Source: a virus (taxonomy: Duplodnaviria > Caudoviricetes). From it: 56,192 nt of DNA. Every line of letters begins with the position of its first letter. Position 1 is the stretch's first letter. The position numbers and the translations under genes are program-made. The stretch covers positions 1 to 56,192 of the IMG/VR virus record IMGVR_UViG_3300008113_000177; one strand, 5' to 3'. This document shows, in pieces, positions 1 to 55,873 of the stretch. The notes beneath the pieces were generated by a model that was not told the origin of the DNA, made no database searches, and saw only the letters and a program-made list of their open reading frames with translations.

Positions 1-202
1 AATGGAACGCGTTAGAATCCAACGTATGGAACGCGTTAGAATATCCGTCAAGGTATGCGATAGCTTCAGACGTATTACCGCAGAATTGACCCCTACCTGA
101 TTTGGTAAATAGCGTTATGACATAACCCGGCATTCCACCCTGGATTTGATGCGTTAGGTTTAACCTATCTGCCATTTTTACAATTTTATCAATTCGTGTC
201 AT
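1..202 (-). CDS. Early hypothetical protein, 3'-truncated by window edge
   Basis: ATG at 202 overlaps the stop of 199..480 (ATGA). Reads MTRIDKIVKMADRLNLTHQ... and stays open to base 1. Not in the ORF track. Confidence 0.6.
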   Translation of the reverse strand, partial: MTRIDKIVKMADRLNLTHQIQGGMPGYVITLFTKSGRGQFCGNTSEAIAYLDGYSNAFHTLDSNAFH

Positions 203-480
203 GCCTGCCATTCTCCCAATTCACCCTTAAGGGTATCAATTGCAATTTGCCTATCCGATTCAAGCGTACCGATTAACGCGTACCCTGTTAATTCCCTAAC
301 TTTATCGGTGATACTTTCAAGCACTACATCCGTATCAACATACGGATATTCCGATAGGGTATGCATATACTCTGATACTTGCGCAGGATTATTGCATCCT
401 GCCAATACCGCAAATGTTACGAATTCCACGCCTTGAATTGTCTTAATACTTGTGAACAAATCAAATCCTGCCATTGTCAT
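199..480 (-). CDS. Early hypothetical protein
   Basis: 93-aa ORF coupled by ATGA overlaps to neighbours. Confidence 0.7.
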   Translation of the reverse strand: MTMAGFDLFTSIKTIQGVEFVTFAVLAGCNNPAQVSEYMHTLSEYPYVDTDVVLESITDKVRELTGYALIGTLESDRQIAIDTLKGELGEWQA

Positions 481-3278: not shown

Positions 3279-4574
3279 TCAGACTTGCTTATTTATCTCG
3301 TGCTGAATACGCTTTTCAGCTATCTTGAGATACTCTTCGTCAAGCTCACAGCCTATAAAGTTTACACCTTCAAGCATTGCTGCCTTACCAGTAGTACCAC
3401 TACCCATAAAGGGGTCTAATACTGTACCCCCACGTCTAGTTACCATTCGTACTAGATAACGCATGAGGTCGGTAGGCTTTACTGTTGGATGGTGGTTTGC
3501 AGCTACGCTGTCGTTGCGCTGGTAGGCTGTCTCGTTACGTACTTCTCTACCATCATGTGAATATTGCTTAGGTTCTAGGTCTTCAAGTCCTTCGTTACGG
3601 TCACGCTTATTTGATTTAGAGCAGTAGAAGAAACGTGCAGCTGAACCACTTGATGTATCGCTGGCTAGTCGTTTTGGCGATGTAGGCTTACCGTTATTGT
3701 TAAAGTGCCTAGCACCATCAGTTTGTACCCAGGCTCCACCCTTAGTGTCAGGGAATAGGTCTAAGACCTCTTGTGAGCCATCATGTATGAAGTTAGCTCC
3801 CCATCTGCCTAATGGGTTAGCAGGATTAGCACCTGATAGGTCACTGCTGTTCTTCCACGAGTTGTCCATTACGCCACCACGCTCACGTATCTTATCTACG
3901 CCAGCAGATAACTTATTGAAGTCATCTTCATCCATAGGAACACGTGTAGCATCGATGTTGATAGCACCTACACCCCACTTGAGTACGTTATTAGTTACTG
4001 TACCCTCTAGTGGCTTACGTGCCATAGTGATTGGCTCAGAGGCGGGTTTAAGAGCTGTCCCCCAGCCTTGCCAATTCTTTGCTTCATCAGTAAGTGGTTC
4101 GTATGGAGTGACCTCATTACTGGTCAACTTGTTCTCTTTATCGACGTCTGAAGCTTGATACGTAGACGCTGTAGGGATTGCTCTACCCCGATTAGGGTGA
4201 CCAAATGACTTGTCTATGGCACAACTTACGTTATGAGATTTAGGGAATCCGCTACTGTAGACCCAAGCAATCATGTCACGTATTTCAAACCCAGCATCTT
4301 CGATGTTGACAGCCATTCGATGCTGCGTACGAGTACCTGCAAACGATAGGAGGTAACCACCAGGCTTGAGTACACGTAGGCATTCACGCCATATCTCAAC
4401 GGAAGGTACGTCATAATCCCACTTCTTGGACATGAAGGATATACCGTACGGTGGGTCAGTAACAATAGAGTCTATGCTGTTATCTGGGTACGTCTTTAGG
4501 GTGTCTAAGCAGTTGCCAAGATGTAATTGAAATCGTGGAATATCACCAGTTTGTAATTGTGTAGGGTCTACCAT
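3279..4574 (-). CDS. DNA N6-adenine/N4-cytosine methyltransferase (beta class, with large insertion)
   Basis: IVTDPPY catalytic motif N-terminal; HPTVKP and LDPFMGSGTTG SAM motif C-terminal. Confidence 0.93.
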   Translation of the reverse strand: MVDPTQLQTGDIPRFQLHLGNCLDTLKTYPDNSIDSIVTDPPYGISFMSKKWDYDVPSVEIWRECLRVLKPGGYLLSFAGTRTQHRMAVNIEDAGFEIRDMIAWVYSSGFPKSHNVSCAIDKSFGHPNRGRAIPTASTYQASDVDKENKLTSNEVTPYEPLTDEAKNWQGWGTALKPASEPITMARKPLEGTVTNNVLKWGVGAINIDATRVPMDEDDFNKLSAGVDKIRERGGVMDNSWKNSSDLSGANPANPLGRWGANFIHDGSQEVLDLFPDTKGGAWVQTDGARHFNNNGKPTSPKRLASDTSSGSAARFFYCSKSNKRDRNEGLEDLEPKQYSHDGREVRNETAYQRNDSVAANHHPTVKPTDLMRYLVRMVTRRGGTVLDPFMGSGTTGKAAMLEGVNFIGCELDEEYLKIAEKRIQHEINKQV

Positions 4575-6840: not shown

Positions 6841-7491
6841 ATGAACAAAGTAAGTACTGTTTGGAAAACCCCCAACGCACTCGAACATATATGTTTCTGT
6901 GCAAGAGTCTCCTCCAGTAATCAGAATGATAGGTCGGATGCTGCAAATAAACGACTTATCAAATACTGCATGAGGAATAAACACTGGTCAATCTTTGAGA
7001 TGGCTAACTGGACAATAGAGATTCATACGTCTAGAATGGTGAGCCGACAATTTATTCGACACTCATCCATCAAGGTTCAGGAGTTTAGTCAAAGATATGC
7101 AGAAGTCAAAGAAGAAATCACGCCTCCAAATATGCGTGGCAAACATCCGTACAACCGGCAATCATCTGTTGAGATGCCTCTGGATATGCAACTCTATGCT
7201 GACAGCATTGTTTCTAATGCAATTCAGCAGATTGAAAGTGCATATGACAAACTTGTAGAAGCTGGTGTAGCACTAGAAACAGCACGTGCGATATTGCCTG
7301 AGTGTGCGCCAACTACCCTATATGCCAATGGACGTTTACGTGACTGGATTCACTATATGGACGTAAGGCGTGGTAACGGTACGCAGAGTGAACATGAGGA
7401 CTTGGCAAATAAGATATATGAAGAGTTCCAGGTTGAATTCCCGATGCTTGCAGAAATAGTAGAAGAACTCAAAGGAGATGAGGTTGTTTAA
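6841..7491 (+). CDS. thyX: FAD-dependent thymidylate synthase
   Basis: HWSIFE, RH...QEFSQRY, ETARAILP, TQSEH motifs. Confidence 0.93.
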   Translation: MNKVSTVWKTPNALEHICFCARVSSSNQNDRSDAANKRLIKYCMRNKHWSIFEMANWTIEIHTSRMVSRQFIRHSSIKVQEFSQRYAEVKEEITPPNMRGKHPYNRQSSVEMPLDMQLYADSIVSNAIQQIESAYDKLVEAGVALETARAILPECAPTTLYANGRLRDWIHYMDVRRGNGTQSEHEDLANKIYEEFQVEFPMLAEIVEELKGDEVV

Positions 7492-7906
7492 TTTACTTGA
7501 TAAAGATGCTGTAGTACCAACAAGGGCTACGGCTGGTTCAGCTGGTTTTGACCTCTATGCATTGAATGATGCATTTGTAGAGGATGGTGATGTAGCGGTT
7601 GTATCAACGGGTGTGTCTGTAGACATCCCAGAGGGTCACTACGCCCTTGTTTGCTCAAGGTCTGGGCTTGCTGCCAAGTATGGTGTATTCGTCCTCAATG
7701 CGCCCGGAATTATTGATGCAGATTACAGGCAGGAAATCAAAGTCATCTTAGCCAAATTTCCTAACAGTATGGATAATGGTCGTTTCCAAATTAACAAGGG
7801 TGACCGTATCGCTCAGTTGTTATTTGGTCAGTGTGATGTAAGCATTCTTAGTCGTGTAACAGCAGATGCTGAACGCACTGGCGGATTTGGTTCTACAGGA
7901 ATTTAA
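7478..7906 (+). CDS. dut: Trimeric dUTPase
   Basis: AGFDL, RSGLA, GIIDADYR, RIAQ, RTGGFGSTG. Confidence 0.96.
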   Translation: MRLFNLLDKDAVVPTRATAGSAGFDLYALNDAFVEDGDVAVVSTGVSVDIPEGHYALVCSRSGLAAKYGVFVLNAPGIIDADYRQEIKVILAKFPNSMDNGRFQINKGDRIAQLLFGQCDVSILSRVTADAERTGGFGSTGI

Positions 7907-7907
7907 A

Positions 7908-8138
7908 ATGGATAACATATTCTTTGTATGCGTCGGGTTTGCTGCATATGCACTTGTAAACTATGGGCTAAATATGCTTGGCGCATACAGAGAATATAAA
8001 GAGCTTACTGAATGGCTTGATGAAAGGGGTGTGGAGATATCGTCCCTAGATAAACGGGAGTTATCAAAGTACCTTTCAATATTCAGGTTATCTGAAATAG
8101 ATGGTGTTGAAGTAGTCTCGATTGATGAGCCTGAATAA
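7908..8138 (+). CDS. Small membrane-anchored hypothetical protein
   Basis: MDNIFFVCVGFAAYALVNYGL... starts right after the dut stop. Confidence 0.6.
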   Translation: MDNIFFVCVGFAAYALVNYGLNMLGAYREYKELTEWLDERGVEISSLDKRELSKYLSIFRLSEIDGVEVVSIDEPE

Positions 8139-8212
8139 GGAGGAGCCAGCCGCTGGGAGTACGACTGGCTCTGGATAGGTTGCCTGAAAGGTAAGGTAGG
8201 TAGGTATCAGAC
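8138..8212 (-). ncRNA. Putative anti-RBS small RNA targeting early-gene leaders
   Basis: TATAAT at 8224-8219, then 6 nt; stem GUCUGA/UCAGGC with loop UACCUACCUACCUUACCUU; 3' hairpin GAGCCAGUCG/CGGCUGGCUC. Confidence 0.7.
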
Positions 8213-8226
8213 AGTAGGATTATACC

Positions 8227-8460
8227 TTAGTCTTCTTTGTTGGCAAGTTGCTTTGAAACATAATCTGCATATTCAAGGGCGAGTTTCATTTGAGACCTAG
8301 CGTTAGGTTCGTAGCCTTGCTTCTTGTAGATGTTCTGAAGGTGATAGTGAACAGTTCGTTTAGAGATTAGTAGCTTTTCGCCTATCTCATTTACTGTCAT
8401 CCTGTCTATTGCCATAAGATTCAAAATAGTGTGTTCTTTAGGCGTTAGGTTGTCATACAT
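8227..8460 (-). CDS. LuxR/GerE-type HTH transcriptional regulator
   Basis: LTPKEHTILNLMA...EIGEKLLISKRTVHYHLQNIYKK. Confidence 0.88.
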   Translation of the reverse strand: MYDNLTPKEHTILNLMAIDRMTVNEIGEKLLISKRTVHYHLQNIYKKQGYEPNARSQMKLALEYADYVSKQLANKED

Positions 8461-8812
8461 CCCTTGCTCTCCTCTTTAGTGTGTTGAACTGTGTTTCAGC
8501 CTTTGCCTCATCTTCATAGAAGTAAATCACGCTTTGGTTTTTACCATTTGAGTAATCTTCTCGATGGAATACAAAGAATGAGTAGGTTGGATGCTTTACG
8601 ATTGTTCCCAGATTGCAAATAAGTGTATGACCAGGACAACGTCCATTAATGCATCCATCTTCACAATATTGCTTTCCCATAAACTTCTCTTTCCATTTAG
8701 GAGATACACCCATAGGTGTTCCAAATGTACGTTCGTCGAGTAAGTTTGCTAGATGGACAATTGCATTGATGTACAAAGGGTCATCAGTTGAAGTGATTAA
8801 TTTTTGTGCCAT
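8453..8812 (-). CDS. Hypothetical protein
   Basis: 119-aa ORF; TGnTAAACT-N6-ATG start. Confidence 0.7.
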   Translation of the reverse strand: MAQKLITSTDDPLYINAIVHLANLLDERTFGTPMGVSPKWKEKFMGKQYCEDGCINGRCPGHTLICNLGTIVKHPTYSFFVFHREDYSNGKNQSVIYFYEDEAKAETQFNTLKRRARDV

Positions 8813-8864
8813 ATGACAAGTTTATCAGGTATGCATTAGATAGCATATACGTTACAATCCGATT

Positions 8865-9113
8865 ATGGGCGTCGTAAAGAAATATCAGAACCCCAAGGGT
8901 GGATTGAACGCAGCTGGTAGAGCGCATTTCAAGAAGACTACTGGTGCTAACTTGAAGCCCCCGGCTCCTAAGCCTAAAACGCCAAAAGATGCTGCTCGCC
9001 GTAAGTCATTCTGTTCAAGAATGAAAGGTATGCGTGAGAAGAACACATCGCCTGAAGTAGCAAAAGACCCTAACAGTAGAATAAATAAGTCCTTAAGAGC
9101 TTGGAATTGTTAG
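8865..9113 (+). CDS. Small basic phage protein (DUF6321-like)
   Basis: GGLNAAGRA...RRKSFCSRM...DPNSRINKSLRAWNC. Confidence 0.8.
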   Translation: MGVVKKYQNPKGGLNAAGRAHFKKTTGANLKPPAPKPKTPKDAARRKSFCSRMKGMREKNTSPEVAKDPNSRINKSLRAWNC

Positions 9114-9123
9114 TGAGATAATC

Positions 9124-9297
9124 ATGAAAACTAAAGCGCATCGTGGCTTCAAAGTAGTACAAGCAGAGATTGCTAAGAAGCAAGGTATCTCTATGAATAG
9201 TGCTGGTGCTATCCTAGCAACTTCTGCACGTAAAGCTAGCCCTGCCGCTAAGGCTAAAAACCCTAGACTAAAGAAAGTATTAGGCAAGGCTAAGTAA
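9124..9297 (+). CDS. Small basic phage protein (57 aa)
   Basis: Read by hand: MKTKAHRGFKVVQAEIAKKQGISMNSAGAILATSARKASPAAKAKNPRLKKVLGKAK*. Confidence 0.75.
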   Translation: MKTKAHRGFKVVQAEIAKKQGISMNSAGAILATSARKASPAAKAKNPRLKKVLGKAK

Positions 9298-9570
9298 ATG
9301 CTGAACGAGATGAACAAGCATATGAACCATCTTTCTATGGGTACTTTGATGACTATAGAAACGAAGGAACATAACCTCAAGAAAGCACCTACGAAAACGG
9401 AGCTTCTGAAAATGGAGCAACGTGAGCATAAGTTAGGCAATCGCCCGACTATGCGAGAAGCAATGGAAGCTGAGTACGCAGAGCATTCTAACGCTGAAGA
9501 TAAGTTGGTAATCAAACCGAGTCGAGCGCAGGAAGCCAAGGCTACTGCCATTTATAAAAAAAGGAAGTAA
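9298..9570 (+). CDS. Hypothetical protein with internal E.EH.L...PT repeat
   Basis: ETKEHNLKKAPT and EQREHKLGNRPT; abuts previous stop. Confidence 0.7.
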   Translation: MLNEMNKHMNHLSMGTLMTIETKEHNLKKAPTKTELLKMEQREHKLGNRPTMREAMEAEYAEHSNAEDKLVIKPSRAQEAKATAIYKKRK

Positions 9571-9575
9571 CTAAA

Positions 9576-9743
9576 ATGCCAATGGGAATGCCCTATCCAA
9601 AGGGTGAAATGTCTATGTCGAAGATGATGGGTGTTGAGTCCAAGAAGGATGCAATGCCAGCGAAAAAGGCTAAAAGCATGAAGCCTGCATCTAAGAACGG
9701 TAAGAAGATGACCGCAAAGATGATGATGAAAGGTAAATGTTGA
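9576..9743 (+). CDS. Met/Lys-rich microprotein (55 aa)
   Basis: Read by hand: MPMGMPYPKGEMSMSKMMGVESKKDAMPAKKAKSMKPASKNGKKMTAKMMMKGKC*; TGATG overlap with next gene. Confidence 0.7.
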   Translation: MPMGMPYPKGEMSMSKMMGVESKKDAMPAKKAKSMKPASKNGKKMTAKMMMKGKC

Positions 9744-10822
9744 TGGCGGCTGCATCCGCTAATATGAGTGCCGCTAAACGCTTTCAGGCAAGTATGAGGA
9801 GTAATAACCCTGGTATCGTTCCTGATAAGCAAGGCACTGCACGAACGCTAGAAGCTGCTCGTCGTTTTCAACAAACTATGCGTCTACGTGACCCCGGTAT
9901 TGTTGGTAATGCTAGTAGTGAATTGTCTAAAGCGTTAGTTCGGTCTGCACCTTCTGAGATTGCCACACGTGCTAGTGGTGAACTAATGAAGCGTGAGGCT
10001 GGTGATATTGCTCGTCGTGCAAGTGGTGAAATGGTTAAGCGTCCAGCAGGTGAACTTGCAACTCGTGCCGCTGGCGAGATGGTTAAACGTCCTGCTGGAG
10101 AACTCGCTACACGTGCTGGTGGTGAGATGGTCAAGCGTGGTGCAGGTGATGTTGCTAGACGTGCTGGTGGTGAACTTGCTAAGGTTGCTGCCTCTGAAGG
10201 TAGCAAGGCTGGTATGCGTCAAGTTGCCGGTCAGGTTGCTAGTCAAGCTGCTGGTAATCTTGGGCGAACCGCTGCACAAGGACTTGCTATGGGTGCGGCT
10301 AAAGCTGTTTTACCAATAGCAGTTGTTGCGGCTACACAAAAAGGTTCTGGTGAATTTCCTGAACTAGAGAAGTTGCGTCGCGAAGAATCTGAAAACCGTC
10401 GTGTCAAAATGCAACAAGGTATGAAAACAGGTATGGGTAACACTGCACCTGGTGCATACCGTCACGAAACGCATATGACAGGTCTCAAAGGTGAATATAA
10501 ACCTATTGAAGACTTGACTGGATATGCCGTTAGCCTCATTGAAAAAGGTCGTAACTTTGGTGAAGCTCGTAAACTTATGCAGGGAACTGAAAAGTTTAGG
10601 GGTATGTCAGATGACATGAAGCGTATGGCTCTTCAGTACTACGATGATTGGCAGAAGGGTCAGTTAGCATCTACTAATCCTGCTGGTCGTGCTAAGTTGA
10701 ATGCTTATCTTGCATCTGAAAAACAGGCAAGGGAACGTGCTGCAAATGCAAATAAACCTTTGACGCCTACTGACCCAACTGGAATGCGTAAGCCTATTCG
10801 TCGTGCGCTTGGGATGGAATAG
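9743..10822 (+). CDS. Hypothetical protein with 8-aa tandem repeats
   Basis: About 9 units of R-x-x-G-E/D-hydrophobic-x-x (RAAGEMVK/RPAGELAT). Confidence 0.8.
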   Translation: MAAASANMSAAKRFQASMRSNNPGIVPDKQGTARTLEAARRFQQTMRLRDPGIVGNASSELSKALVRSAPSEIATRASGELMKREAGDIARRASGEMVKRPAGELATRAAGEMVKRPAGELATRAGGEMVKRGAGDVARRAGGELAKVAASEGSKAGMRQVAGQVASQAAGNLGRTAAQGLAMGAAKAVLPIAVVAATQKGSGEFPELEKLRREESENRRVKMQQGMKTGMGNTAPGAYRHETHMTGLKGEYKPIEDLTGYAVSLIEKGRNFGEARKLMQGTEKFRGMSDDMKRMALQYYDDWQKGQLASTNPAGRAKLNAYLASEKQARERAANANKPLTPTDPTGMRKPIRRALGME

Positions 10823-25499: not shown

Positions 25500-26249
25500 A
25501 TGCCTACAGAAGAAGAAGAAGGTGGACTGCCTCCTATTCCCGTACCAGTACCTGCTCCAATTGACTTTGGTCAGGGTGGTGGTGGCGATGCAGTCATTAC
25601 GATTGAGCCTCCAATCATTGTCCCTCCTTCTGACTTCAGCCTGTCTGGTCAAGCTACTGTAACCTTACCTGTCTTTGCTACAATATCTTTATCGGGACGT
25701 GCAACGACTAGTGTTACACCTGCTCAGATAAGAGCGGTATCTCTCAGTACTACAACAACTGCTACGACTCAGGTTAGGTTTGTTCAATCACTTAGCTTGA
25801 GTGGTAATGTTGGTGTAACAAGTACACCAGTAATCAATTTTGCATTAGCGTTGAATGGTAAGGCTAGTGTTACTACCGACCCTATTGTTGGTGGTGTAGT
25901 CGAAGCAAGTATCTCGTTATCAGCAAGTGCAAGTGTTGACCTTGATGTAGGTTACACTGTTTGTGAATGTCCTGATTACTTGTTTGACCCGGTAGATGAT
26001 TTACCTGCTGGTTCATTCCGTAGTGGTGTATTCATCCCTATATTTAGGTTGGCTGCTGGTAACGTATTTGTACCGGCTACAACTGAACAGACGTGGATAC
26101 GGCGTGGTGACAACGGTTGCCTTACGTATGGTCCTGTAGGTTTTCAATTCCCTCTAGGTCCACTAATGTTACGATATGCAAATGGTGTTTCTGGCACTAA
26201 GCATGATGGCAGTAAGTCTAATAGCTGGAAGCGCAGAGGGTGTGATTAA
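25500..26249 (+). CDS. Virion structural protein (Pro-rich N-terminus, SLSG repeats)
   Basis: ORF in tail cluster. Confidence 0.55.
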   Translation: MPTEEEEGGLPPIPVPVPAPIDFGQGGGGDAVITIEPPIIVPPSDFSLSGQATVTLPVFATISLSGRATTSVTPAQIRAVSLSTTTTATTQVRFVQSLSLSGNVGVTSTPVINFALALNGKASVTTDPIVGGVVEASISLSASASVDLDVGYTVCECPDYLFDPVDDLPAGSFRSGVFIPIFRLAAGNVFVPATTEQTWIRRGDNGCLTYGPVGFQFPLGPLMLRYANGVSGTKHDGSKSNSWKRRGCD

Positions 26250-29200
26250 TGGCAGATACAACACGTATGGTTACTGACTCAGCCCAGCCTTTTATCGTTG
26301 GTGACAAGATATGGCGTGGTGTTGATACCTATAACGACCCAAACAAACTTGAGACTGGCTACGCTGAAACCATAAGTAACCTACAACTTGATGGTGGCTC
26401 CCTTGTGTTACGTAATGGATGGCAGGGACTACTACAGCCTACTGAGTTGAATGGTGCTGGTAGTGACGCTAACGGCGTGTATGAGATGGTTCCTATCAAG
26501 GGTGCATCTGGTGTAACAAGTAACTTTGTATATACATCAGCTGGTGATGTCCGTCTATTCAATACGACTACGAATGCGTATACGAACCTAACAACTAACA
26601 GTGCTTTTGATACGTTGTACAGCCCTAATGTACGTATGGTTTCCTATGGTAAGTACGTCTATGGTGTTCCAGGACTAAAGTCAGATGGTACTGAATCACC
26701 TGTTGGGTTGTTCCGTACTGATGGTTCTACTATCGAGATAGTCCCTACTATCACTGGATTTCCTAACCTCAAGCCGTCTGCTAGAGCATATGCGTTTGTT
26801 GAGTATGGTGTTCCTGCTACTAACAAGCATACGTTTATTGATAGTGCTGTTGGTCCAATCCTTAGAGCGGGTGGAATAACAACCCTTATCTCTGATTGGA
26901 ACTTTACTGCTGGCAGTACAGGTTCTATGCCTACATCAGGTGCAGCTTGGTTGAAGTATTCAGGTGACCCAGTACGTAAGGCTATTCCACTTACTGTTGC
27001 TGCTGGTAACTTTCCATCTGGTGTAACAGCCCAGATTGTTTCCCCTCTAGGTCAAGGGGCAACTCGCATGATTGAGATTGCTGGTACGGATGATGGCATC
27101 TACCAGAACGTCCCTTATACAAGTACTGCAATTACGTTTACGAATGGTAGTGCCAATATAGGTGGTACGTTCAATCCTGTTCCTGCTGTTGATACACCTA
27201 TACAAATTGCAACTGCTGGAGTATTACCAACTAACTTCGCTATCAACACAACATACTTTGTTGTTGGTACACCAACCTCTTCTGTTATTACTGTTTCGAG
27301 TACTGTTGGTGGAACTGCTATTGTTGCTGGTAGTGCTGGTAGTGGTACTCATTCGTTGCAATACATCAACGTCGCTGATGAGCAACTGAACTTTACTAAT
27401 CAGAATGATAGTTCAACAGCAATCACTTGTACGGTTGCGTCAACGGCTACAGTAACTAGCGCAAGCCATAACCTCAAGGTTGGTCAACAGATACTCTTTA
27501 TGGGTACTGTAGGTATCCCTGCTAATACTCCTGCGTGGGTGTTGACTGTACCTACGGCTAATACCTTTACCGTATCGATTGTTTCGCAGGGTGGTGCTGC
27601 ATACACGTTTACTGCTACAGGAAGCAATAGTTACCATACTATTCAAGGTGCAGGTCTATACCTAGTTAGTCTATGGGCTATCAACGTAGACACCCAGAAC
27701 AGTGTTACGGGTCAATCCATCAAAGTGGCATTACAAGCTTACAAGAATGGCGTTGCTATTCAAGGTGCATATGCATCTGCTATCATTGCACCACCTATTG
27801 CTAGGTCAGGTACTGACTGGATTAAGGCTAACCTCTTATGTGACTTCCGTCCATTCAGAGACCAGATTACATCCTTCCAGATATTGATACAGAATGTAAA
27901 CGCAAAAGATGGTGACCAAAAAGGTATCTACGTAACCAACGTAAATCTACACGCTGTAAGTCCTAGATTGAATACGGATAGTACTGATGCTGCGGACCCT
28001 ATCACTGGGTTGGTCAAGGTCAAGGTTTATCAGAACAATACTAATGTTGCTGGGTACGCAGGACTCCTCAAAGGATGTGCTGTCAAGTTCTCTTTTGCAA
28101 CGGCAAAAGACTGGAGTAAGTACGACAGTGTTAGTATGCGTATGCAGTTACCTGAGAAGATTAGGGATATAGCACCTAACCTTAGAATCGGTTTACAGCA
28201 GAGTGGTGCTGCCATCGAGTGGGGTGGTTATGGCACTATCAACGAGAAGACAGGCTATATGACGTGGAGTGTAAGAGGATTTACAGACTCCCGTATTAGT
28301 GCTGTACGTCAGATGTATATCCGTTGTGAGACTGACATTCAAGACCTAGTTGATGGTGAAGACTTTATGTATATTGGTGACATAGTTGTGAATGGCAACT
28401 TGTCTGCTGATATCAAGTACACCTATAGATTTTCAAGGTGGTATCCAGAGGATGGTGCATCTGCACCATATATTCCAGGTGTTGGTACTGCTGCCTCAAC
28501 TGTATATGCTAAAGGGTTTGAGAGTGAACTCTCTGGTGCAAGCGAACAGATAACTGCTACTGAAGCACTTAGTGCTAACCAGATTATGCTGAACCCTGCT
28601 AACGAGACACTTACTGCAGCAGGTTACACACACCTCATTATCTATCGGTCTAGCACTTCATTTACTGATGGGTTGTATCGTTGTCTTGGTTCTTTGAAGC
28701 TAAGTGACAATACTATCAACGGTGTAAACCTCACACTGCTTAGTACTACAGGTGGCATTACACTTATTGATAACGTCGCTGAGTCTGCTGTCTTAGATGA
28801 TGGTCCAAAGGGTTCACAGGGTGATGTATACGAATCTGGTCAGGATTACTTCCCGACTGGTGCTACTGCTATCTCTGTTCACCAGAATAGATTGTGGGTA
28901 AGTAAGAATAACTCTTTATGGGTATCTTGGCAGTTTGATTCAGACAACGAATACACCATTAATACTACTCACGTACCGCTTCTTACTGACCCTAAGGTAG
29001 CAATCAAGGGTGCATCGTTTGATGTCTCATCAAAAGATGACAAAGAGTACATCGTGAATATGTTGTCGTACCACGGCGATATGATGTCACGTAACAACAG
29101 TACAACAGCTGTACTACTCGTCTTTCGAGAGAATACCGTTTATCCGGTTACAGGTTTTGACCCAACTAACTATTCAATACAGGCATTCCTACGTGAGCCT

Positions 29201-30235
29201 GGTATTGGTTTGCTTGCACCTAGAGGTCTTGCAAACATACTTGGTCAACCTTGGTATTTGAACACGAGTGGTGTTGTACAGTTTGCTGGTACTCAGGTTA
29301 TTCCTAAGTCTGTTGCCCTTGATGGCTTGATGTCAATCAGTAAGTATAGGGTTCAGATTGATAGTGACAACTATATAACATCTGAGCAGTATGCAAAGTC
29401 CTTTATGGCTATGCACGATAAGAAGCTGTTCTTGTTTGCTCCAAGGGCATATAAGACTGCTTCCGTTGATTACCGTAGTAACGTGCAAGCATATGTGTGG
29501 GACACACGTTATTCAGGGTGGGTTGCATTTAGTGCGCCATCAGTTATGACCGGCGGCTTATCTATAGATACGACAAATGACAGAAGTATCCTTTATGTTG
29601 GTGGATATGACGGTCAAATATATGTGTTGAATAACTTCTACGACAGCCCATATAGGTATAAGCCCACGAGTGGTTCAGGGACTAGCACTCTGTCATTCTC
29701 AGGTACTACTAATACTACAGGACTAACAGTCAATGACCCTGTGACTATTGTGAAGGCTGGTGGTGGTCTTACTGTTGATACGACTATGTACGTAAAGACG
29801 GTAACAAACAATAGTGTTCAACTTAGTGCTTCTGTTAGTGGTACGGCTTATACGTTCACTGGTGGGACTGTCCCACAGTTCTGTCTACTTGGAGAGATTG
29901 ATTGGGAAGTATTCACTAGAGCTTTTGGTCAGGCTTACTCAGATGGTATTTCATACTACTCAAAGAATCGTCCTAGCCAGATAGACTTACACGCTATTGG
30001 TGATACGTCTGGTGGCTCAACTGTTAGTTGGGTTGTTCAGAATGAGGTTGGTGTACAGACTACTGGTGATTACACTATTACGGGTAATGCATCTAGGGCT
30101 ATACGTGGATTGAACAGAGATGTGATTGGTGTGAACTTCCAGATTGGATTATCTGGTACTGAGCTAGATTATCCATTTAGGTTGTATGCAGTACATATCC
30201 ATATGGTTGAGAGTGGAATCCAGAGGCATAGATAA
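26249..30235 (+). CDS. Tail nozzle/hub protein (1328 aa) with inserted beta domains
   Basis: N-terminal W.GVD...ISNL.LDGG.L..R.G and HQNRLWV beta-propeller-like motif; position before ejection genes. Confidence 0.6.
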   Translation: MADTTRMVTDSAQPFIVGDKIWRGVDTYNDPNKLETGYAETISNLQLDGGSLVLRNGWQGLLQPTELNGAGSDANGVYEMVPIKGASGVTSNFVYTSAGDVRLFNTTTNAYTNLTTNSAFDTLYSPNVRMVSYGKYVYGVPGLKSDGTESPVGLFRTDGSTIEIVPTITGFPNLKPSARAYAFVEYGVPATNKHTFIDSAVGPILRAGGITTLISDWNFTAGSTGSMPTSGAAWLKYSGDPVRKAIPLTVAAGNFPSGVTAQIVSPLGQGATRMIEIAGTDDGIYQNVPYTSTAITFTNGSANIGGTFNPVPAVDTPIQIATAGVLPTNFAINTTYFVVGTPTSSVITVSSTVGGTAIVAGSAGSGTHSLQYINVADEQLNFTNQNDSSTAITCTVASTATVTSASHNLKVGQQILFMGTVGIPANTPAWVLTVPTANTFTVSIVSQGGAAYTFTATGSNSYHTIQGAGLYLVSLWAINVDTQNSVTGQSIKVALQAYKNGVAIQGAYASAIIAPPIARSGTDWIKANLLCDFRPFRDQITSFQILIQNVNAKDGDQKGIYVTNVNLHAVSPRLNTDSTDAADPITGLVKVKVYQNNTNVAGYAGLLKGCAVKFSFATAKDWSKYDSVSMRMQLPEKIRDIAPNLRIGLQQSGAAIEWGGYGTINEKTGYMTWSVRGFTDSRISAVRQMYIRCETDIQDLVDGEDFMYIGDIVVNGNLSADIKYTYRFSRWYPEDGASAPYIPGVGTAASTVYAKGFESELSGASEQITATEALSANQIMLNPANETLTAAGYTHLIIYRSSTSFTDGLYRCLGSLKLSDNTINGVNLTLLSTTGGITLIDNVAESAVLDDGPKGSQGDVYESGQDYFPTGATAISVHQNRLWVSKNNSLWVSWQFDSDNEYTINTTHVPLLTDPKVAIKGASFDVSSKDDKEYIVNMLSYHGDMMSRNNSTTAVLLVFRENTVYPVTGFDPTNYSIQAFLREPGIGLLAPRGLANILGQPWYLNTSGVVQFAGTQVIPKSVALDGLMSISKYRVQIDSDNYITSEQYAKSFMAMHDKKLFLFAPRAYKTASVDYRSNVQAYVWDTRYSGWVAFSAPSVMTGGLSIDTTNDRSILYVGGYDGQIYVLNNFYDSPYRYKPTSGSGTSTLSFSGTTNTTGLTVNDPVTIVKAGGGLTVDTTMYVKTVTNNSVQLSASVSGTAYTFTGGTVPQFCLLGEIDWEVFTRAFGQAYSDGISYYSKNRPSQIDLHAIGDTSGGSTVSWVVQNEVGVQTTGDYTITGNASRAIRGLNRDVIGVNFQIGLSGTELDYPFRLYAVHIHMVESGIQRHR

Positions 30236-48805: not shown

Positions 48806-49382
48806 CTTTAGTCTCCATAAGCGTTTTGATGGTGATGCTTTCTCCACCTTCCACTACAGCAAACCCGAATGCTTCAGCACTTGATGGGTCACTCAACAAC
48901 TTAGCCTTCACTGAATCTGGAACCATAGATATAAGTACAGATTCCTGTACCTTGATAGCCTGTGGACATTCCAACTTTGCGAATGCTAGTGCAACATTAG
49001 ATGTCATTACCTTTATCGTTGGTGTTGTCGTACGTTGACCGATAGTCCCGAATGGGCATCGATACGTCTTGCTACGAAGGTTGCCTTCCTTATCTCTAGG
49101 GAGGAGTGTGTTTGCTACCTTTGCAGCTTGACCTTCATACATAGCCCTAAGGTAAGTGACCTTAGACTTATGACGCTTGACCATCTTATTGATGTTCTCT
49201 AAGACAGACTTGTACTTCATCTCTTCTGCTGCAGCACGTGTCTCAGCGTCAAGAAGGATTCTCATATACTTGAGAAGGTCTTCTTCACCTTCAAGGATTG
49301 AGGGGAGGTCTCTCCCCGTTGGTCCCGCATACTCGCCTGTCTCATCATCAAACAGGTCACCGTCAATCTCAATAATAGCCAT
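48792..49382 (-). CDS. Gam/Gp157-like protein
   Basis: Coiled coil then SKTYRCPFGTIGQR; next to ERF. Confidence 0.6.
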   Translation of the reverse strand: MAIIEIDGDLFDDETGEYAGPTGRDLPSILEGEEDLLKYMRILLDAETRAAAEEMKYKSVLENINKMVKRHKSKVTYLRAMYEGQAAKVANTLLPRDKEGNLRSKTYRCPFGTIGQRTTTPTIKVMTSNVALAFAKLECPQAIKVQESVLISMVPDSVKAKLLSDPSSAEAFGFAVVEGGESITIKTLMETKDETK

Positions 49383-49396
49383 ACCTACCTACCTTT

Positions 49397-51972: not shown

Positions 51973-52205
51973 GAATACAATCCCTTTACATTCTTCGCAT
52001 AATCGATAGCTTTGTGTACTAGATTCCACATATGCACACTATCCGTATGTGTGTACAGATACTCTGCGACCTTCGATGCATCCTTATCCTGGAGTGTTGC
52101 ATCAGCTATCTTGTATTCATCTGGTGAGAATGCCTCTATATGGCATTCGGGGAACATCTGCCTGAGACGTTCCAATTCAGCGTTAAATAACTTTTGATTG
52201 AACAT
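51969..52205 (-). CDS. Early hypothetical protein
   Basis: AAGGTAGGTAGGT-ATG leader. Confidence 0.75.
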   Translation of the reverse strand: MFNQKLFNAELERLRQMFPECHIEAFSPDEYKIADATLQDKDASKVAEYLYTHTDSVHMWNLVHKAIDYAKNVKGLYS

Positions 52206-52266
52206 ACCTACCTACCTTAGGGAATGAATACCTGTACCAGAAATGATACAGGTATATGTAAACGTA

Positions 52267-52827
52267 TCAGCAGCCTACCGCTGTTACCAAACGTCCAGCG
52301 ATACATTCTTTGATTTCCATACGTGAGTATGCACCAGCTAACTCAATTTGTTGAATGATTCGTTGCATACCATCCCTACCGTAACGGAATGTGATACTTT
52401 CCAAATGACTATTCTTATCAAATTGGAATAATGCATGATTGTGGATATCACCATTCCCATAGACTGAGATTTCTATGTCTAAGCTTCCATCTAGAGGATT
52501 CTTTAATCCTATACTTACAGATTCGATGTCAAGGATATGTTTCCAAAACATAACACGTATATCGTCCAACTGTACCGAATGACGTTTGATGCCATATTGT
52601 GCATAAACGGCATCTGTCACATTATCGATACTTTCATTCCATACCGTATCTCCACCAGCGAATACGCCTATGGTGTTAGGTAATTCCATCACCTGGTGTT
52701 TACTATCATCTACGAATGCGTGATAGAGCTTGAATGGGATACTTTCCCTTTCACATACCGCTATCTGTTCCAACATATCCGACGCTGAGATTTGGTCGAT
52801 ATCGACCGATTCAATTCTGATTTCCAT
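52267..52827 (-). CDS. Early hypothetical protein
   Basis: GTAGGTAGGTAGCT-ATG leader. Confidence 0.75.
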   Translation of the reverse strand: MEIRIESVDIDQISASDMLEQIAVCERESIPFKLYHAFVDDSKHQVMELPNTIGVFAGGDTVWNESIDNVTDAVYAQYGIKRHSVQLDDIRVMFWKHILDIESVSIGLKNPLDGSLDIEISVYGNGDIHNHALFQFDKNSHLESITFRYGRDGMQRIIQQIELAGAYSRMEIKECIAGRLVTAVGC

Positions 52828-52837
52828 AGCTACCTAC

Positions 52838-53167
52838 CTACTCCTTTACTAAACCTTTGTGTGTGTCCCATACAGCGATAAGAATGTCTGCATCTGAGTA
52901 TTCTTCGGTATTATTCAAGTCTGCTACCAGTCTGATAAATTCTCGTTGCCAGACTTCAGCGTGACCCAGATGTTTACATTTGTATAACTCGAATACCATA
53001 TCGACGAATTGCCGTACAGACATAATCGTCGCATAGCTCGTCAAGTCTGGTAGCGTAACGTGAAGGGATGATATTACATCATCCATTTCTATCTTGTATC
53101 CACCTAACGCAATTACCTTTGCCAAGCTCACCAATTCAACATTTGTGAATGTCTTAGATATATTCAT
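52838..53167 (-). CDS. Early hypothetical protein
   Basis: AAAGGTAGGTAGGT-ATG leader. Confidence 0.75.
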   Translation of the reverse strand: MNISKTFTNVELVSLAKVIALGGYKIEMDDVISSLHVTLPDLTSYATIMSVRQFVDMVFELYKCKHLGHAEVWQREFIRLVADLNNTEEYSDADILIAVWDTHKGLVKE

Positions 53168-53181
53168 ACCTACCTACCTTT

Positions 53182-53382
53182 CTATTCTTCGTCCCTATCA
53201 TCATTCGTACCCATATGTTCTTCGATGATTTCGTCATTCTCAAACAGGTAAACCGATTCACCAGCTACCCTGCCATACCCTGATGTCGATAACTCAACGT
53301 ACGATTTGTATGATTCCTGGGCTAATTGACGTGACGCATATTCGCCTATTTTGCCTACGTTACCTACGATAACTGTATACAT
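53182..53382 (-). CDS. Early hypothetical protein
   Basis: Start revised to MYTVIVGNVG at 53382. Confidence 0.7.
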   Translation of the reverse strand: MYTVIVGNVGKIGEYASRQLAQESYKSYVELSTSGYGRVAGESVYLFENDEIIEEHMGTNDDRDEE

Positions 53383-53384
53383 AC

Positions 53385-53639
53385 CTATTCTCCTATCCCT
53401 GCATCGTCGCATACTGTCGCTGAAATAATGATGTTTGTACCTTTAGGGAATTCGATTGTGAAGGTATCACCATTCCAGCTGTAGTAATTATGTGTGTACG
53501 TGATACCTAGTGTGCGCTTGACCTTGCGTACAATCGCTGCATCTGAAGCTTTACCCGTATGCTTTACAGTCTTACGTACAACCCAGCTGTAATTTGGCAC
53601 GTCACAAAACGTATCTGTCATTTCTATACTGAGATTCAT
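53385..53639 (-). CDS. Early hypothetical protein
   Basis: EMTDTF...NYSWV.R motif; TAGGT-ATG coupling. Confidence 0.7.
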   Translation of the reverse strand: MNLSIEMTDTFCDVPNYSWVVRKTVKHTGKASDAAIVRKVKRTLGITYTHNYYSWNGDTFTIEFPKGTNIIISATVCDDAGIGE

Positions 53640-53641
53640 AC

Positions 53642-53935
53642 CTACTCGCTTTCTTCGTCTGTATCGTCTGATTCTTCGGACAATTCGGCAGCATCGTTTA
53701 CAGACTTGGCTATCTCATTCCAATCTACGCTAGACATAAAGCTCCCAACGATATCGCCTATGAATCCTTGGAATACGTTACGTACGGAATTCTCTAGGTA
53801 TTCTTCCACCATTTCCTTGCACCATCCGGCATCGATAGCGTATCCATTTTCCTTGGCTACATCATGCATATCATCGCCAAACCATAGGTTAACCTGCCAC
53901 GTATCTTTATTCGTCCAGCCGTTATAACTTTCCAT
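53642..53935 (-). CDS. Conserved acidic early protein (YNGWTN..TW.V.LW family)
   Basis: Recognisable N-terminal motif, VDWNEIA, acidic tail. Confidence 0.75.
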   Translation of the reverse strand: MESYNGWTNKDTWQVNLWFGDDMHDVAKENGYAIDAGWCKEMVEEYLENSVRNVFQGFIGDIVGSFMSSVDWNEIAKSVNDAAELSEESDDTDEESE

Positions 53936-53937
53936 AC

Positions 53938-54189
53938 CTACCTACCTTTCCCTGCTGGCATAAAACCTGCCACATAATCAGCGATACTCTTATCTGTGAG
54001 ATTGTACAAACCATAATCAATATCGGAACGAATATCATCTACATCTGATACGCTCCAAAGCTCATTTTCATCTGTGAATACTGCATCAAGATTGTTTGTA
54101 ACGTCATACACTTGGATGCTACACAATCCACGTTCCTGCCAGATGTTCACAGAGAAAATCCTGCCATCGTTTACATTAACTAATGCCAT
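53938..54189 (-). CDS. Early hypothetical protein
   Basis: GAAAGGTAGGTAGGT-ATG leader. Confidence 0.75.
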   Translation of the reverse strand: MALVNVNDGRIFSVNIWQERGLCSIQVYDVTNNLDAVFTDENELWSVSDVDDIRSDIDYGLYNLTDKSIADYVAGFMPAGKGR

Positions 54190-54210
54190 ACCTACCTACC
54201 TTTCATACCT

Positions 54211-54255
54211 AGTCTACCAGAGTGTACGGTAGTGTGATGTGTGAGATATTGCACA
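54211..54255 (-). promoter_or_regulatory. Early promoter with CRP-like box
   Basis: TGTGAGATATTGCACA at 54240-54255; -10 TAGACT at 54216-54211. Confidence 0.6.
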
Positions 54256-54267
54256 CTACCTACCTAC

Positions 54268-54561
54268 CTATCGTCTGATTGTTTTACTTAGTAACGATTG
54301 TTCCATAAATAGATGCAGCATATCGATATCCTCTGCGATGGTATAGCCTACACCAGCTTTATAGTCGTGTTTCCATACCTCAGCTAGATTCTGTACCCTA
54401 CACACTTCGTATGAGCGTGGTTCCCTAAGCTCACCGATACTTTCAGCGATAGATTCTAGCTGTTGAATACGTTTACTCTTATCCTGGATTGTATGTAAAT
54501 CCCTGATATCTGAAAGGATGTCGAATACGCGTTCCTTGCGTGTCAAATTACCTATTACCAT
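54268..54561 (-). CDS. Early hypothetical protein
   Basis: Start revised to MVIGNL at 54561 after AGTAGGTAGGATT. Confidence 0.7.
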   Translation of the reverse strand: MVIGNLTRKERVFDILSDIRDLHTIQDKSKRIQQLESIAESIGELREPRSYEVCRVQNLAEVWKHDYKAGVGYTIAEDIDMLHLFMEQSLLSKTIRR

Positions 54562-54565
54562 AATC

Positions 54566-54877
54566 CTACCTACTTTCCTGAATACGTATGCTGGCAGCCT
54601 GTACATGAGCGTATGCGTCACCCTTTATAGGGTAAAGCTTCAGATAGTTACGGGTACGCATTAACTTGACGTCAAACCTACCTACTACACTTCCATTCCA
54701 TCCGTCACGCTGAATTACTACGATGTGATTTCCATTGTATGCATGACGTGAGTAGAATGGTAATTCGTTATTTGCTACCTCGAAATCCTTCAAGCTCTTA
54801 TATTCTCTGAATATCCTAACACCACGATTTGATGCATAATCAGCAGCAGATGATGCCACATGAATGTCTAACGTCAT
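54566..54877 (-). CDS. Early hypothetical protein
   Basis: GAAAGGTAGGTAGGTT-ATG leader. Confidence 0.7.
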   Translation of the reverse strand: MTLDIHVASSAADYASNRGVRIFREYKSLKDFEVANNELPFYSRHAYNGNHIVVIQRDGWNGSVVGRFDVKLMRTRNYLKLYPIKGDAYAHVQAASIRIQESR

Positions 54878-54937
54878 AACCTACCTACCTTTCATCTGGT
54901 AGGGTATCCAACGGTATGAATACCCTACCTGCTATCA

Positions 54938-55243
54938 TTACCTGTACAAATCACCGGGATTCTGTACGCTATCGCGCATTTCTTCGAATGTCTTATCCTT
55001 TAGCTGGACGTTTGTAATGAATGCGTGTACCCGTTTGGTATCAGCTGATTTCAATTTGCTGCTATTCATTATCAAATCCATAATGTCATTCGGTACGTCG
55101 ATACCAGCATACAATCTGCCATTCGTTACGCTATATGATGTGAATACTACGTGTTTAACAGCTTTCCTGCGTTCCGTACAAACGCATATACCTATGGCAT
55201 CATTCATCTGTACGAATAGAATTCCGCTGACGTTTACTTTCAT
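54938..55243 (-). CDS. Early hypothetical protein
   Basis: ATAGGTAGGTAGTT-ATG leader. Confidence 0.7.
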   Translation of the reverse strand: MKVNVSGILFVQMNDAIGICVCTERRKAVKHVVFTSYSVTNGRLYAGIDVPNDIMDLIMNSSKLKSADTKRVHAFITNVQLKDKTFEEMRDSVQNPGDLYR

Positions 55244-55245
55244 AA

Positions 55246-55458
55246 CTACCTACCTATCCTTTCCTTGACACAAGTACTTGCGTTCAAATCGTATAGTAAT
55301 ATTGTCTTATTCGGGAATTGTTCAGCTATGGAATCAAACGCATTCATAGCATCATCCAAAGTTTCACACGCGCATTTGACACCATTACCGACAACCCAAA
55401 TACTAAAGCTCGCCCAAACGGATTTTGATGCTAGGCATCTGCATTCTTCTAACGTCAT
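55246..55458 (-). CDS. Early hypothetical protein
   Basis: GAAAGGTAGGTAGGTT-ATG leader. Confidence 0.7.
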   Translation of the reverse strand: MTLEECRCLASKSVWASFSIWVVGNGVKCACETLDDAMNAFDSIAEQFPNKTILLYDLNASTCVKERIGR

Positions 55459-55480
55459 AACCTACCTACCTTTCAATAAG

Positions 55481-55525
55481 AGTATACTACGCTATACGGT
55501 AGTATGTAATGTGAGATATTCCACA
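55481..55525 (-). promoter_or_regulatory. Early promoter with CRP-like box
   Basis: TGTGAGATATTCCACA at 55510-55525; -10 TATACT at 55486-55481. Confidence 0.6.
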
Positions 55526-55798
55526 CTAGTCTGCGTCATTCCATAGCAGGATATCGCTGCAATTATCATCGTCGGATAGCACAATCCATCCTGTAGGTTT
55601 GTAGCCATTACGTTCCTCCAGCTGATTGTATATCGTGGCAGATTCCGGTGAATTTGGCATACGCTCAGATGCTGCCGGTTTATAGTACTGTTGCATTTTG
55701 CATAGTCGTTTGTATTCATTACTCCACATACCAGAATGGTAATGTGTGAAATACCAATAGTATCCTTGACATATCGCAAACCTATCGAATGATTCCAT
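55526..55798 (-). CDS. Conserved early phage protein (FDRF.IC...YH.G.WS..Y.RL type)
   Basis: Motif recalled from phage early regions; GAAAGGTAGGGTAG leader. Confidence 0.7.
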   Translation of the reverse strand: MESFDRFAICQGYYWYFTHYHSGMWSNEYKRLCKMQQYYKPAASERMPNSPESATIYNQLEERNGYKPTGWIVLSDDDNCSDILLWNDAD

Positions 55799-55828
55799 AA
55801 CTAACTACCCTACCTTTCCTACACATCT

Positions 55829-55873
55829 ATTCTACTACACTATCCGGTATCTAAGTATGTGAAGTATCTCACA
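55829..55873 (-). promoter_or_regulatory. Early promoter with perfect CRP-consensus box
   Basis: TGTGA-AGTATC-TCACA at 55858-55873; -10 TAGAAT at 55834-55829. Confidence 0.65.

Follow-up and report, generated by a model that had tools for sequence, protein, structure and literature searches.

A viral genome record of 56,192 bases in IMG/VR (the window, meaning the whole stretch analysed) carries at 8133-8212 of its minus strand a real, conserved and strand-specific RNA element. It is predicted to specify a small RNA (sRNA) whose first hairpin loop is antisense to a stereotyped leader, shared by the ribosome-binding sites (RBSs) of a distant class of early genes. Our confidence that the element is a functional RNA gene is higher than our confidence in its mechanism; for the latter, the sequence points, with rather better than even chances in our judgement, to a trans-acting antisense sRNA that would occlude the phage's own early RBSs. 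An earlier reading of the same DNA, made from its letters alone (below, the sequence-only reading), had proposed a small minus-strand RNA antisense to a shared leader. This proposal passed every in-silico test: the RNA is a conserved unit, its targets are early starts, and it changes together with them. Two lesser points of it found no support: an anti-SD-like (anti-Shine-Dalgarno-like) role of the 3′ tail, and timing by the neighbouring LuxR-type protein.

The TATAAT, 6-nt gap, stem-loop, linker and second hairpin described on the minus strand by the sequence-only reading are confirmed. The sRNA folds at -27 kcal/mol (z = -4.16), and 0/200 shuffled sequences fold as well. Its promoter, TTGCCA-16 nt-TATAAT (8246..8219), scores 11/12 against the sigma70-type consensus and is the sole match of that quality found by the promoter scan on either strand of the entire window. 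Stem-loop 1 holds the 15-mer AUACCUACCUACCUU (8207-8193, minus strand), which is antisense to the early leader. Each of the two stems contains one U.G pair that becomes an A-C mismatch in RNA of the plus strand, and the plus-strand version of the terminator hairpin lacks a T-run as well. No ATG, GTG or TTG occurs within the sRNA; on the plus strand, the motif is followed by ATC AGA CAG TAG and belongs to no open reading frame (ORF), bearing out the earlier statement that this strand offers no usable start (ATC, then a stop after three codons).

From the stop codon of the adjoining LuxR-type gene to position 8171 there is no other terminator-like site, and the -35 hexamer lies within the coding sequence (CDS) of that gene; the mRNA of the LuxR operon should therefore end in the element too. 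This layout, with the -35 in the CDS, the -10 2 nt past the stop codon and a terminator common with the mRNA, fits an sRNA of the 3′ untranslated region (3′ UTR) with an internal promoter. At the sequence level, the element is its own transcription unit, with a promoter and a terminator hairpin whose geometry is kept in clades A-F of its relatives.

The antisense motif is a singular one. AAGGTAGGTAGGTAT occurs once on the plus strand (8193-8207) and five times, exactly, on the minus strand at early ATGs (49381, 52204, 53166, 53934 and 54188), as had been claimed. With up to two mismatches there are 11 matches against 0.06 expected, and 0/100 shuffles reach 11; GGTAGGTAGG is found once on the plus and eight times on the minus strand. 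The minus-strand copies sit directly before an ORF-opening ATG, with the consensus GAAAGGTAGGTAGGTATG. The motif is never the RBS of a plus-strand ORF, a use that the sequence-only reading had named, for relatives, as a sign against itself.

We scanned both strands of the window for targets by duplex energies of the loop only. Once the loop's own complement is set aside, the 11 best sites (<= -22 kcal/mol) all lie on the minus strand at 49-56 kb, and ten of the 11 fall at start codons (53935, 54189, 49382, 53167, 52205, 55243, 55798, 55458, 54877 and 52827). These ten starts have 8-16 nt of perfect match or energies of -21 to -30 kcal/mol, and are 41-48 kb from the sRNA gene. At <= -18 kcal/mol, the real loop has 24 sites, ten shuffled loops 1-12. 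Duplex folding of the whole sRNA against start regions, as the earlier reading had proposed, proved unspecific, because the GC-rich terminator pairs with anything, and the loop-only scan replaced it. As for the further matches listed earlier, those of 13 nt (54877 and 55458) stand, those at 773, 46555, 52827, 54561, 55243 and 55798 stand as weaker ones, and that at 53639 shrinks to a weak match of 8 nt.

Leader copies are locked 0-3 nt from start codons, inside operons too, and are not tied to promoters, as expected of an RNA-level signal. Late genes have ordinary AGGA/GGAG-type RBSs, so the leader is a private signal of the early class. That the leader-bearing genes are early we infer from their gene content, their left-end position and the promoter-like modules upstream of them. 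Their position is seen best in a near-identical complete relative (G002; 59,001 bp with direct terminal repeats), where the leader-bearing genes lie 1.2-7 kb from the left end and the sRNA element at 50.4 kb on the same strand.

The sRNA would be made in two ways, from its near-consensus sigma70-type promoter or by read-through, as the 3′ end of the LuxR operon mRNA. Its hairpin would present a pyrimidine-rich loop of 15-19 nt, followed by a single-stranded linker and an intrinsic terminator. This loop (in some clades also the linker or the terminator loop) is antisense to the leader GAAAGGUAGGUAGGUAUG, which comprises the Shine-Dalgarno (SD) region and the start codon of some 10-13 early genes. 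Pairing over SD and AUG would block 30S binding and probably expose the paired early mRNAs to decay, and the accumulated sRNA would shut off early protein synthesis. Transcription of the sRNA, its pairing in vivo, the repression and its timing are all steps that we infer.

The same pairing could also lead to processing or stabilisation, for instance if RNase III cuts matured the early polycistronic mRNAs. Duplexes of 13-16 bp, such as those predicted here without mismatch, are long enough for RNase III, and other conserved hairpins flank the leaders. However, the duplex covers SD and AUG, so that either a cut or simple occupancy removes the RBS, with a net loss of translation; we hold such an outcome to be highly unlikely.

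Relatives of the element, sorted into clades A to G, come from three kinds of locus search, none of which required the loop: by the LuxR protein, by the terminator pattern and by the 119-amino-acid (119-aa) protein encoded next to it. The LuxR protein led to the element in 9/9 loci, and the terminator pattern on its own to 17 loci in IMG/VR with an anti-leader loop upstream in every case (17/17). With the 119-aa protein, we found 24 loci in IMG/VR (17 of A-D type, four of E1 type, one without the element, two truncated) and 25 in metagenomes (18 with the element, one doubtful, three without, three truncated). The 12 additional sequences picked up by a loop-based pattern are unrelated coding sequences that have neither stem nor terminator, so a match to the loop motif is not diagnostic by itself. 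In the genomes of relatives the asymmetry recurs: sense leaders are numerous, and the antisense locus is single.

In clades A-D and F, the promoter consists of TTGCCA, TTGCGG or TTGACA, a 16-nt spacer and TATAAT or TATACT, with 6 nt to GTCTG. The distance from -10 to GTCT is fixed at 6 nt (5 nt in E1), and the geometry is kept while the flanking coding sequence diverges, the LuxR proteins of clades A and B being 66% identical. The same two hairpins form in 14/14 distinct variants of these clades, with the anti-leader unpaired in the minimum free energy (MFE) fold; the loop core ACCUACCUACC is invariant in all of them and the linker varies. Every protein-search locus that shows the region has the same terminator loop (clades A-D and F; invariant form UACUCCCA). 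Outside the window's clade the linker reads (A/U)ACCUUUC, the complement of GAAAGGU in the 5′ part of the leader. The clade F linker holds a complete second ACCUACCUACCU, and the clade F loop ACCUGCCUACCU is the exact complement of the leader variant AGGTAGGCAGGT of clade B genomes.

Trained on clades B, C and D, a covariance model has a single hit in the window, 8133-8212 on the minus strand (64.6 bits, E 1.4e-11). We used a model-based alignment (A5); when all clades were aligned with MAFFT, the 5′ arm was misplaced in clades A and B. In A5, 235/235 stem cells of 13 distinct sequences pair, against 94.8% in shuffles and 23-46% in slid controls. One terminator pair changes on both sides, from C-G to U-A, in two sequences of clade B. 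Seven further cells of helix 1 with changes on both sides apparently stem from one sequence, taken as L132 aligned one register off, and were not counted. By eye, pair 5 is A-U instead of G-C in clade E, and the terminator is one G-C pair shorter.

The sequence-only reading had also pointed to an anti-SD-like 3′ tail, CUCCUCCUU. The tail is there, yet its range is limited to clades A, D and F; clades B and C end in ordinary U-rich tails (UUUUAAUUUG and UGUUGCUUUU are seen in relatives), so that it does not qualify as a conserved anti-SD feature. The sRNA tail CCUCCUUA has as its plus-strand complement a perfect TAAGGAGG (8136-8143), which overlaps the stop codon of ORF 7866..8138, has no ORF behind it and is missing in clades B and C.

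Could the element be a mere 3′ UTR or terminator of the LuxR operon, which also closes the convergent dUTPase operon, its complementarity being functionless? Its site between convergent genes and its terminator-like hairpin would suit that role. A terminator, however, needs neither an upstream hairpin with a 15-19-nt loop of invariant core nor a conserved promoter; the core is kept where the linker is not, the complementarity statistics argue against chance, and the A-C mismatch and missing T-run of the plus-strand hairpin also count against it. We find this explanation extremely improbable.

The antisense sRNA is further supported by clade E, where the 119-aa protein is 69-71% identical and an element of like build lies at the same place. 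It has a TATAAT, a stem GUCUA/UAGAC or GUCUAC/GUAGAC, a linker, a terminator GACCAG../..CUGGUC and a U-tail, and folds with z = -4.94. The covariance model gives clade E2 16 bits (E 0.7) and misses E1, so the homology of the E-type elements rests on synteny, architecture and TATAATCCTACTGTCT, which is common to clades A and E2. The loop of stem-loop 1 reads UUCCCCUCCC and the terminator loop ACCCCUUC. None of the early genes in a 58-kb genome of this clade (G005) has the GGTAGG leader: five have TGGAGGGGTTCA(A)TG, a motif that occurs five times on the sense strand and not once on the other, and four have (G)AAGGGGTT; (G)AAGGGGT stands at four RBSs. GGAGGGG is the complement of the stem-loop 1 loop, and GAAGGGGT that of the terminator loop; of the three copies of the latter 8-mer, the two on the sense strand lie at early RBSs and the third, on the opposite strand, belongs to the sRNA locus.

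Cross energies swap accordingly between the clades. Loop A pairs with leaders A at a mean duplex energy of -23.8 kcal/mol (0/1000 shuffles as good) and with leaders E at -7.7 kcal/mol (919/1000); loop E pairs with leaders A at -8.8 kcal/mol (720/1000) and with leaders E at -16.4 kcal/mol (19/1000). The clade E terminator loop reaches -11.9 with the type-2 leaders (10/2000). Loops and leaders have both changed, which answers in the affirmative the question of co-variation raised by the sequence-only reading; this joint change counts as one independent switch.

A broader claim, on which we would lay even odds, is that these phages have a private early translation code, where a non-canonical, near-identical SD/start leader and one co-evolving sRNA form an all-RNA temporal switch. 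Both clade E loops would then have been retuned to two new leader types, GGAGGGG and GAAGGGGU, and clade F would have gained its linker copy. From the loops, we predict early leaders AGGUAGGCAGGU in clade F, GGGAGGGG in E2, AGGUAGGUAGGUGG in D and AGGAGGUUAGGUU in G. The contigs of clades D, F and E2 stop short of the early genes, and the 52-kb contig of clade G is without the far early region. The clade G hairpin (L146/L148) has the loop AACCUAACCUCCUAA on a 4-bp stem that is absent from the MFE fold. In the window, the complement TGGGAGTA of the terminator loop UACUCCCAG occurs once on the minus strand, at 480-487, where it overlaps the ORF 199..480 start codon; the sRNA locus is its sole site in G002, and in another relative (G001) it does not coincide with a recognised start. 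The terminator loop as a second seed in clade A is thus unproven, and the site at 480 may be due to chance.

Joint change of all copies would also be expected if the repeat were a DNA operator together with its regulator, such as the GerE/LuxR-type protein; 8193-8207 would then be a further operator, and no trans-acting RNA would be involved. Orientation does not matter to a DNA site, and this copy adjoins the gene for a helix-turn-helix (HTH) protein. LuxR-type dimers, though, usually bind palindromes, and the motif is a direct repeat that keeps to start codons even within operons that have no promoter. An operator does not explain why the stem is conserved, why the G.U pairs are specific to one strand, why the promoter spacing is fixed or why there is a terminator, and the two clade E sRNA loops match two different leader types. 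We give very little credence to this alternative.

A different purpose for the same RNA deserves more attention: it may be real and pair with SD-like sequences, yet serve mainly to exclude superinfecting relatives, in the manner of c4 RNA, or, in clades whose loops are of the CCUCC type, to damp host mRNAs with strong SDs. The constitutive-looking, near-consensus promoter fits an always-on immunity RNA better than a timer, the loops of clade E (UUCCCCUCCC) and of G type (AACCUAACCUCCUAA) resemble a generic anti-SD, and a whole-genome energy scan with the E loop fails to pick out the leaders. Against this, the loop ACCUACCUACC of clades A-D and F fits the canonical GGAGG poorly and its own leaders perfectly. 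No integrase or repressor is among the families matched (20 early-region and module proteins against PHROGs, 10 against Pfam), and the exact terminator pattern has zero matches in the genomes of 185,579 species. We consider such a main role unlikely; exclusion and self-shut-off are nonetheless compatible, as both can use the same pairing mechanism.

Several observations weigh against the sRNA as a switch of early genes. Its near-consensus sigma70 promoter would fire on DNA entry, so an early-gene timer needs an extra delay, and no evidence of one was found, be it late entry of this DNA, which lies 50 kb from the left end, a slow, stoichiometric build-up of the sRNA or a regulator. The LuxR-type protein, which the sequence-only reading had put forward as the timer, is not supported in this role by anything beyond conserved adjacency. 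In clade E, the pairings span 7-8 bp, like generic anti-SD/SD complementarity, and the genome-wide energy scan with the E loop returns 64 sites at <= -15 without ranking the leaders first; among the 22 top sites listed there is no TGGAGGGGTTCA leader and one AGGGG-type early RBS, at 4566. The case of clade E therefore rests on motif counts and shuffle tests. Many clade B leaders read AGGCAGG, which gives A-C mismatches with the clade B loop, and in distant relatives (L117, L140-L142 and L149) the 119-aa and LuxR genes persist but the hairpin is lacking. Stem covariation is thin and mostly one-sided (G-C/G-U, A-U/G-U), in an alignment fitted to the model.

Six metatranscriptome runs contain 21-36% of the sampled words of 7000-9500, and four of them, taken as Logan contigs, cover genes of both strands patchily at a depth of 2-6. 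Three pieces of these contigs (8184-8485, 8162-8309 and 7923-8199) between them connect the LuxR gene with the predicted start and the terminator. Such contigs give no strand, ends or level, DNA carry-over is possible, and they speak neither for nor against a transcript of the sRNA.

Early-gene shut-off in virulent phages is known mostly through proteins, namely T4 RegA, T4 RegB and inhibitors of the host RNA polymerase. The GGAG targets of RegB are the SDs of early mRNAs. c4 RNA is encoded in the same operon as its target, upstream of it. Bacterial 3′-UTR sRNAs with an internal promoter, of the DapZ/MicL type, depend on Hfq and act on host regulons. By analogy, c4 RNA is the nearest system in mechanism and T4 RegA in function, with RegB also close.

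c4 of phages P1 and P7 is small and phage-encoded and blocks translation by pairing of its loops with sites around an RBS, as the predicted sRNA would, and its specificity sequences differ between related phages, as described in the accessible sections of a 2025 review of phage sRNAs (PMC12197685). According to the same sections, c4 acts on one operon (icd/ant) in the immunity of temperate phages (PMC12197685); here, the targets would be some 10-13 separate genes with a shared leader. The sRNA gene, moreover, belongs to a module of its own, in three parts, over 40 kb away from its targets, in a phage with no lysogeny genes seen. The Rfam search gives no homology to c4 in sequence or structure: in the window no family reaches its gathering score, and at E <= 10 the region 8050-8350 has only chance-level hits to rpfG and sR53 (plus strand). 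Rfam includes a c4 model.

T4 RegA, for its part, competes with the ribosome on about 30 phage mRNAs; its sites there overlap the AUG or lie immediately 5′ to it, so that both systems would amount to a global post-transcriptional shut-off at initiation regions (PMC3014915, in the part available). It is a 122-aa protein with loose, A+U-rich sites (same part of PMC3014915), whereas here the effector would be an RNA and the leader is near-identical over 15-18 nt. RegB cuts GGAG and eases the early-to-late switch, as that part also relates (PMC3014915); it shares with the predicted sRNA the use of an SD motif as a recognition handle, and differs in being a protein nuclease with no private leader and no antisense recognition. 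For T4 itself, that review states that a functional characterisation had not been achieved for any trans-acting regulatory RNA (PMC3014915).

With the DapZ/MicL type, the element has in common a promoter in or at the end of the upstream CDS and a terminator shared with the mRNA; the difference is that its regulon would be the phage's own early genes. VpdS, PreS, AsxR and others are, like it, base-pairing RNAs encoded by phages; they are directed at the host, through its RNAs or genes, or at single phage targets (accessible sections of PMC12197685); the targets here would be the shared leader of a gene class. Those sections contain no sRNA matched to the leader of a whole gene class, and the term 'early gene' appears in them 0 times (PMC12197685). 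More widely, we found no published phage sRNA matched to a gene-class-wide leader in a search that stopped short of the supplementary tables of the phage-sRNA review (38 sRNAs, function unknown) and of the ONT-cappable-seq paper. We also considered and rejected an sRNA that titrates CsrA/RsmA: such RNAs are defined by multiple GGA motifs in loops (PMC4894983, in the part available), and the loops and linker of this sRNA contain no GGA.

If the proposed mechanism is true, one small RNA is enough for a phage to control a class of genes that it has tagged with a private RBS; this RNA would be a counterpart of T4 RegA/RegB at the RNA level and, with its many targets, a relative of P1 c4. Leader and loop together would offer synthetic biology a compact, orthogonal and easily re-programmable translational switch. 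For uncultured phages a search rule would follow, namely to look for an antisense copy of the dominant early RBS in a hairpin loop.

Table 1 Features of the predicted sRNA, its neighbours and its putative targets in the window.
Feature	Position	Strand	Remarks
-35 hexamer TTGCCA of the sRNA promoter	8241..8246	-	within 3′ end of GerE/LuxR gene
-10 hexamer TATAAT	8219..8224	-	2 nt past LuxR stop codon, 6 nt ahead of the stem
Predicted sRNA, ~75-80 nt	8133..8212	-	stem-loop 1, single-stranded linker, terminator hairpin, tail
Stem-loop 1, stem GUCUGA/UCAGGC	8182..8212	-	from the fold; 19-nt loop 8188-8206
Single-stranded 10-nt linker AACCUAUCCA	8172..8181	-	between stem-loop 1 and terminator
Terminator hairpin GAGCCAGUCG(U)/(G)CGGCUGGCUC	8143..8171	-	loop UACUCCCAG; followed by tail CUCCUUAUUC at 8133-8142
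GerE/LuxR-type HTH gene (77 aa)	8227..8460	-	Pfam GerE 1.3e-11; directly upstream of sRNA; synteny in all clades
Conserved 119-aa gene	8453..8812	-	first of the small minus-strand module; no Pfam/PHROG match
Leader/RBS copy, exact 15-mer	49381..49395	-	ATG 49382; Gam-like, 196 aa; -26.4 kcal/mol
Leader/RBS copy, exact, 16 nt perfect	52204..52218	-	ATG 52205
Leader/RBS copy, exact	53166..53180	-	ATG 53167
Leader/RBS copy, exact	53934..53948	-	ATG 53935; -29.7 kcal/mol
Leader/RBS copy, exact	54188..54202	-	ATG 54189; -28.2 kcal/mol
Near-copies of leader	52826..55815	-	starts 52827, 54877, 55243, 55458, 55798; 10-13 nt perfect or -21 to -25 kcal/mol
Weaker leader copies	54561; outside 52826..55815 at 46555 and 773	-	from motif and loop scans

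The element lies between two convergent sets of genes. On its plus-strand side are those for SSB, ThyX, dUTPase and a small ORF, the last of which ends at 8138; on its minus-strand side, the 119-aa gene is followed by the GerE/LuxR gene, which ends at 8227. The 119-aa protein is 90-100% identical across clades A-D and F, against 66% for LuxR, and has invariant residues C50, C54, C59 and H62. Its gene always accompanies the LuxR gene, and in most clades the sRNA does so too. Clades C and D lack the small plus-strand ORF 7866-8138 that separates the dUTPase gene from the sRNA terminator, so that gene and terminator adjoin there; a junction of the same kind is seen in a relative's RNA-library contig.

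The lineage is apparently that of an uncultured, virulent podophage. The record is about 90% complete, with 44% G+C. Pfam matches among the window's proteins include a P22-like portal, a DnaB helicase, an N6/N4 methylase and the GerE/LuxR-type HTH; Erf-like, Gam-like, Mom-like and Holliday-junction-resolvase-like proteins are also encoded, and the 52-56 kb stretch holds many small ORFans. A search for tRNA and tmRNA genes found none. Megablast of 7000-10000 against 50,697 phage records gave zero matches. The nearest cultured phages in a portal protein search are 22-23% identical, so that no named group or host can be assigned. One 8.6-kb contig (L152), with a 119-aa gene 92% identical and a clade-C-like sRNA, is binned in a metagenome-assembled genome labelled uncultured Cyanobium. 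This is a weak hint at Cyanobium as host; mis-binning is likely, because the phage has a G+C content of 44%.

Two further features recur in the early regions. Several leaders have a conserved hairpin, GGTAGGGTAT...ATACCCTACC, immediately upstream, in the window at 54890-54930 (minus strand) and in the early regions of G001 and G004 (L062, L064). Its 3′ arm CCCTACC could instead pair with the RBS GGTAGG, and the hairpin is a candidate terminator, processing site or RBS-masking switch. Promoter-like cassettes are repeated at early genes, in the window at 54200-54262, 55470-55510 and 55810-55850 (minus strand) and in L119 at 7090-7150, 7550-7610 and 10040-10090 (plus strand). In clade A, the cassette consists of an inverted repeat GTAGTGTG..CACACTAC, then ACTACCGTACA, TGGTAGACT or TATACT, and the leader; in clade E, it consists of TTGACA, CACCGTACAGTGTGGTATCAT and ACATATATTGGAGGGGTTCAATG. 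Given these promoters, the 5′ UTRs should be about 15-20 nt long and nearly all leader.

In the structural block, two large plus-strand ORFs (33882-42431, 2849 aa, and 26249-30235, 1328 aa) have no Pfam match. The Mom-like protein (47569-48045) and the N6/N4 methylase (3279-4574), both encoded on the minus strand, suggest modification of the phage DNA.

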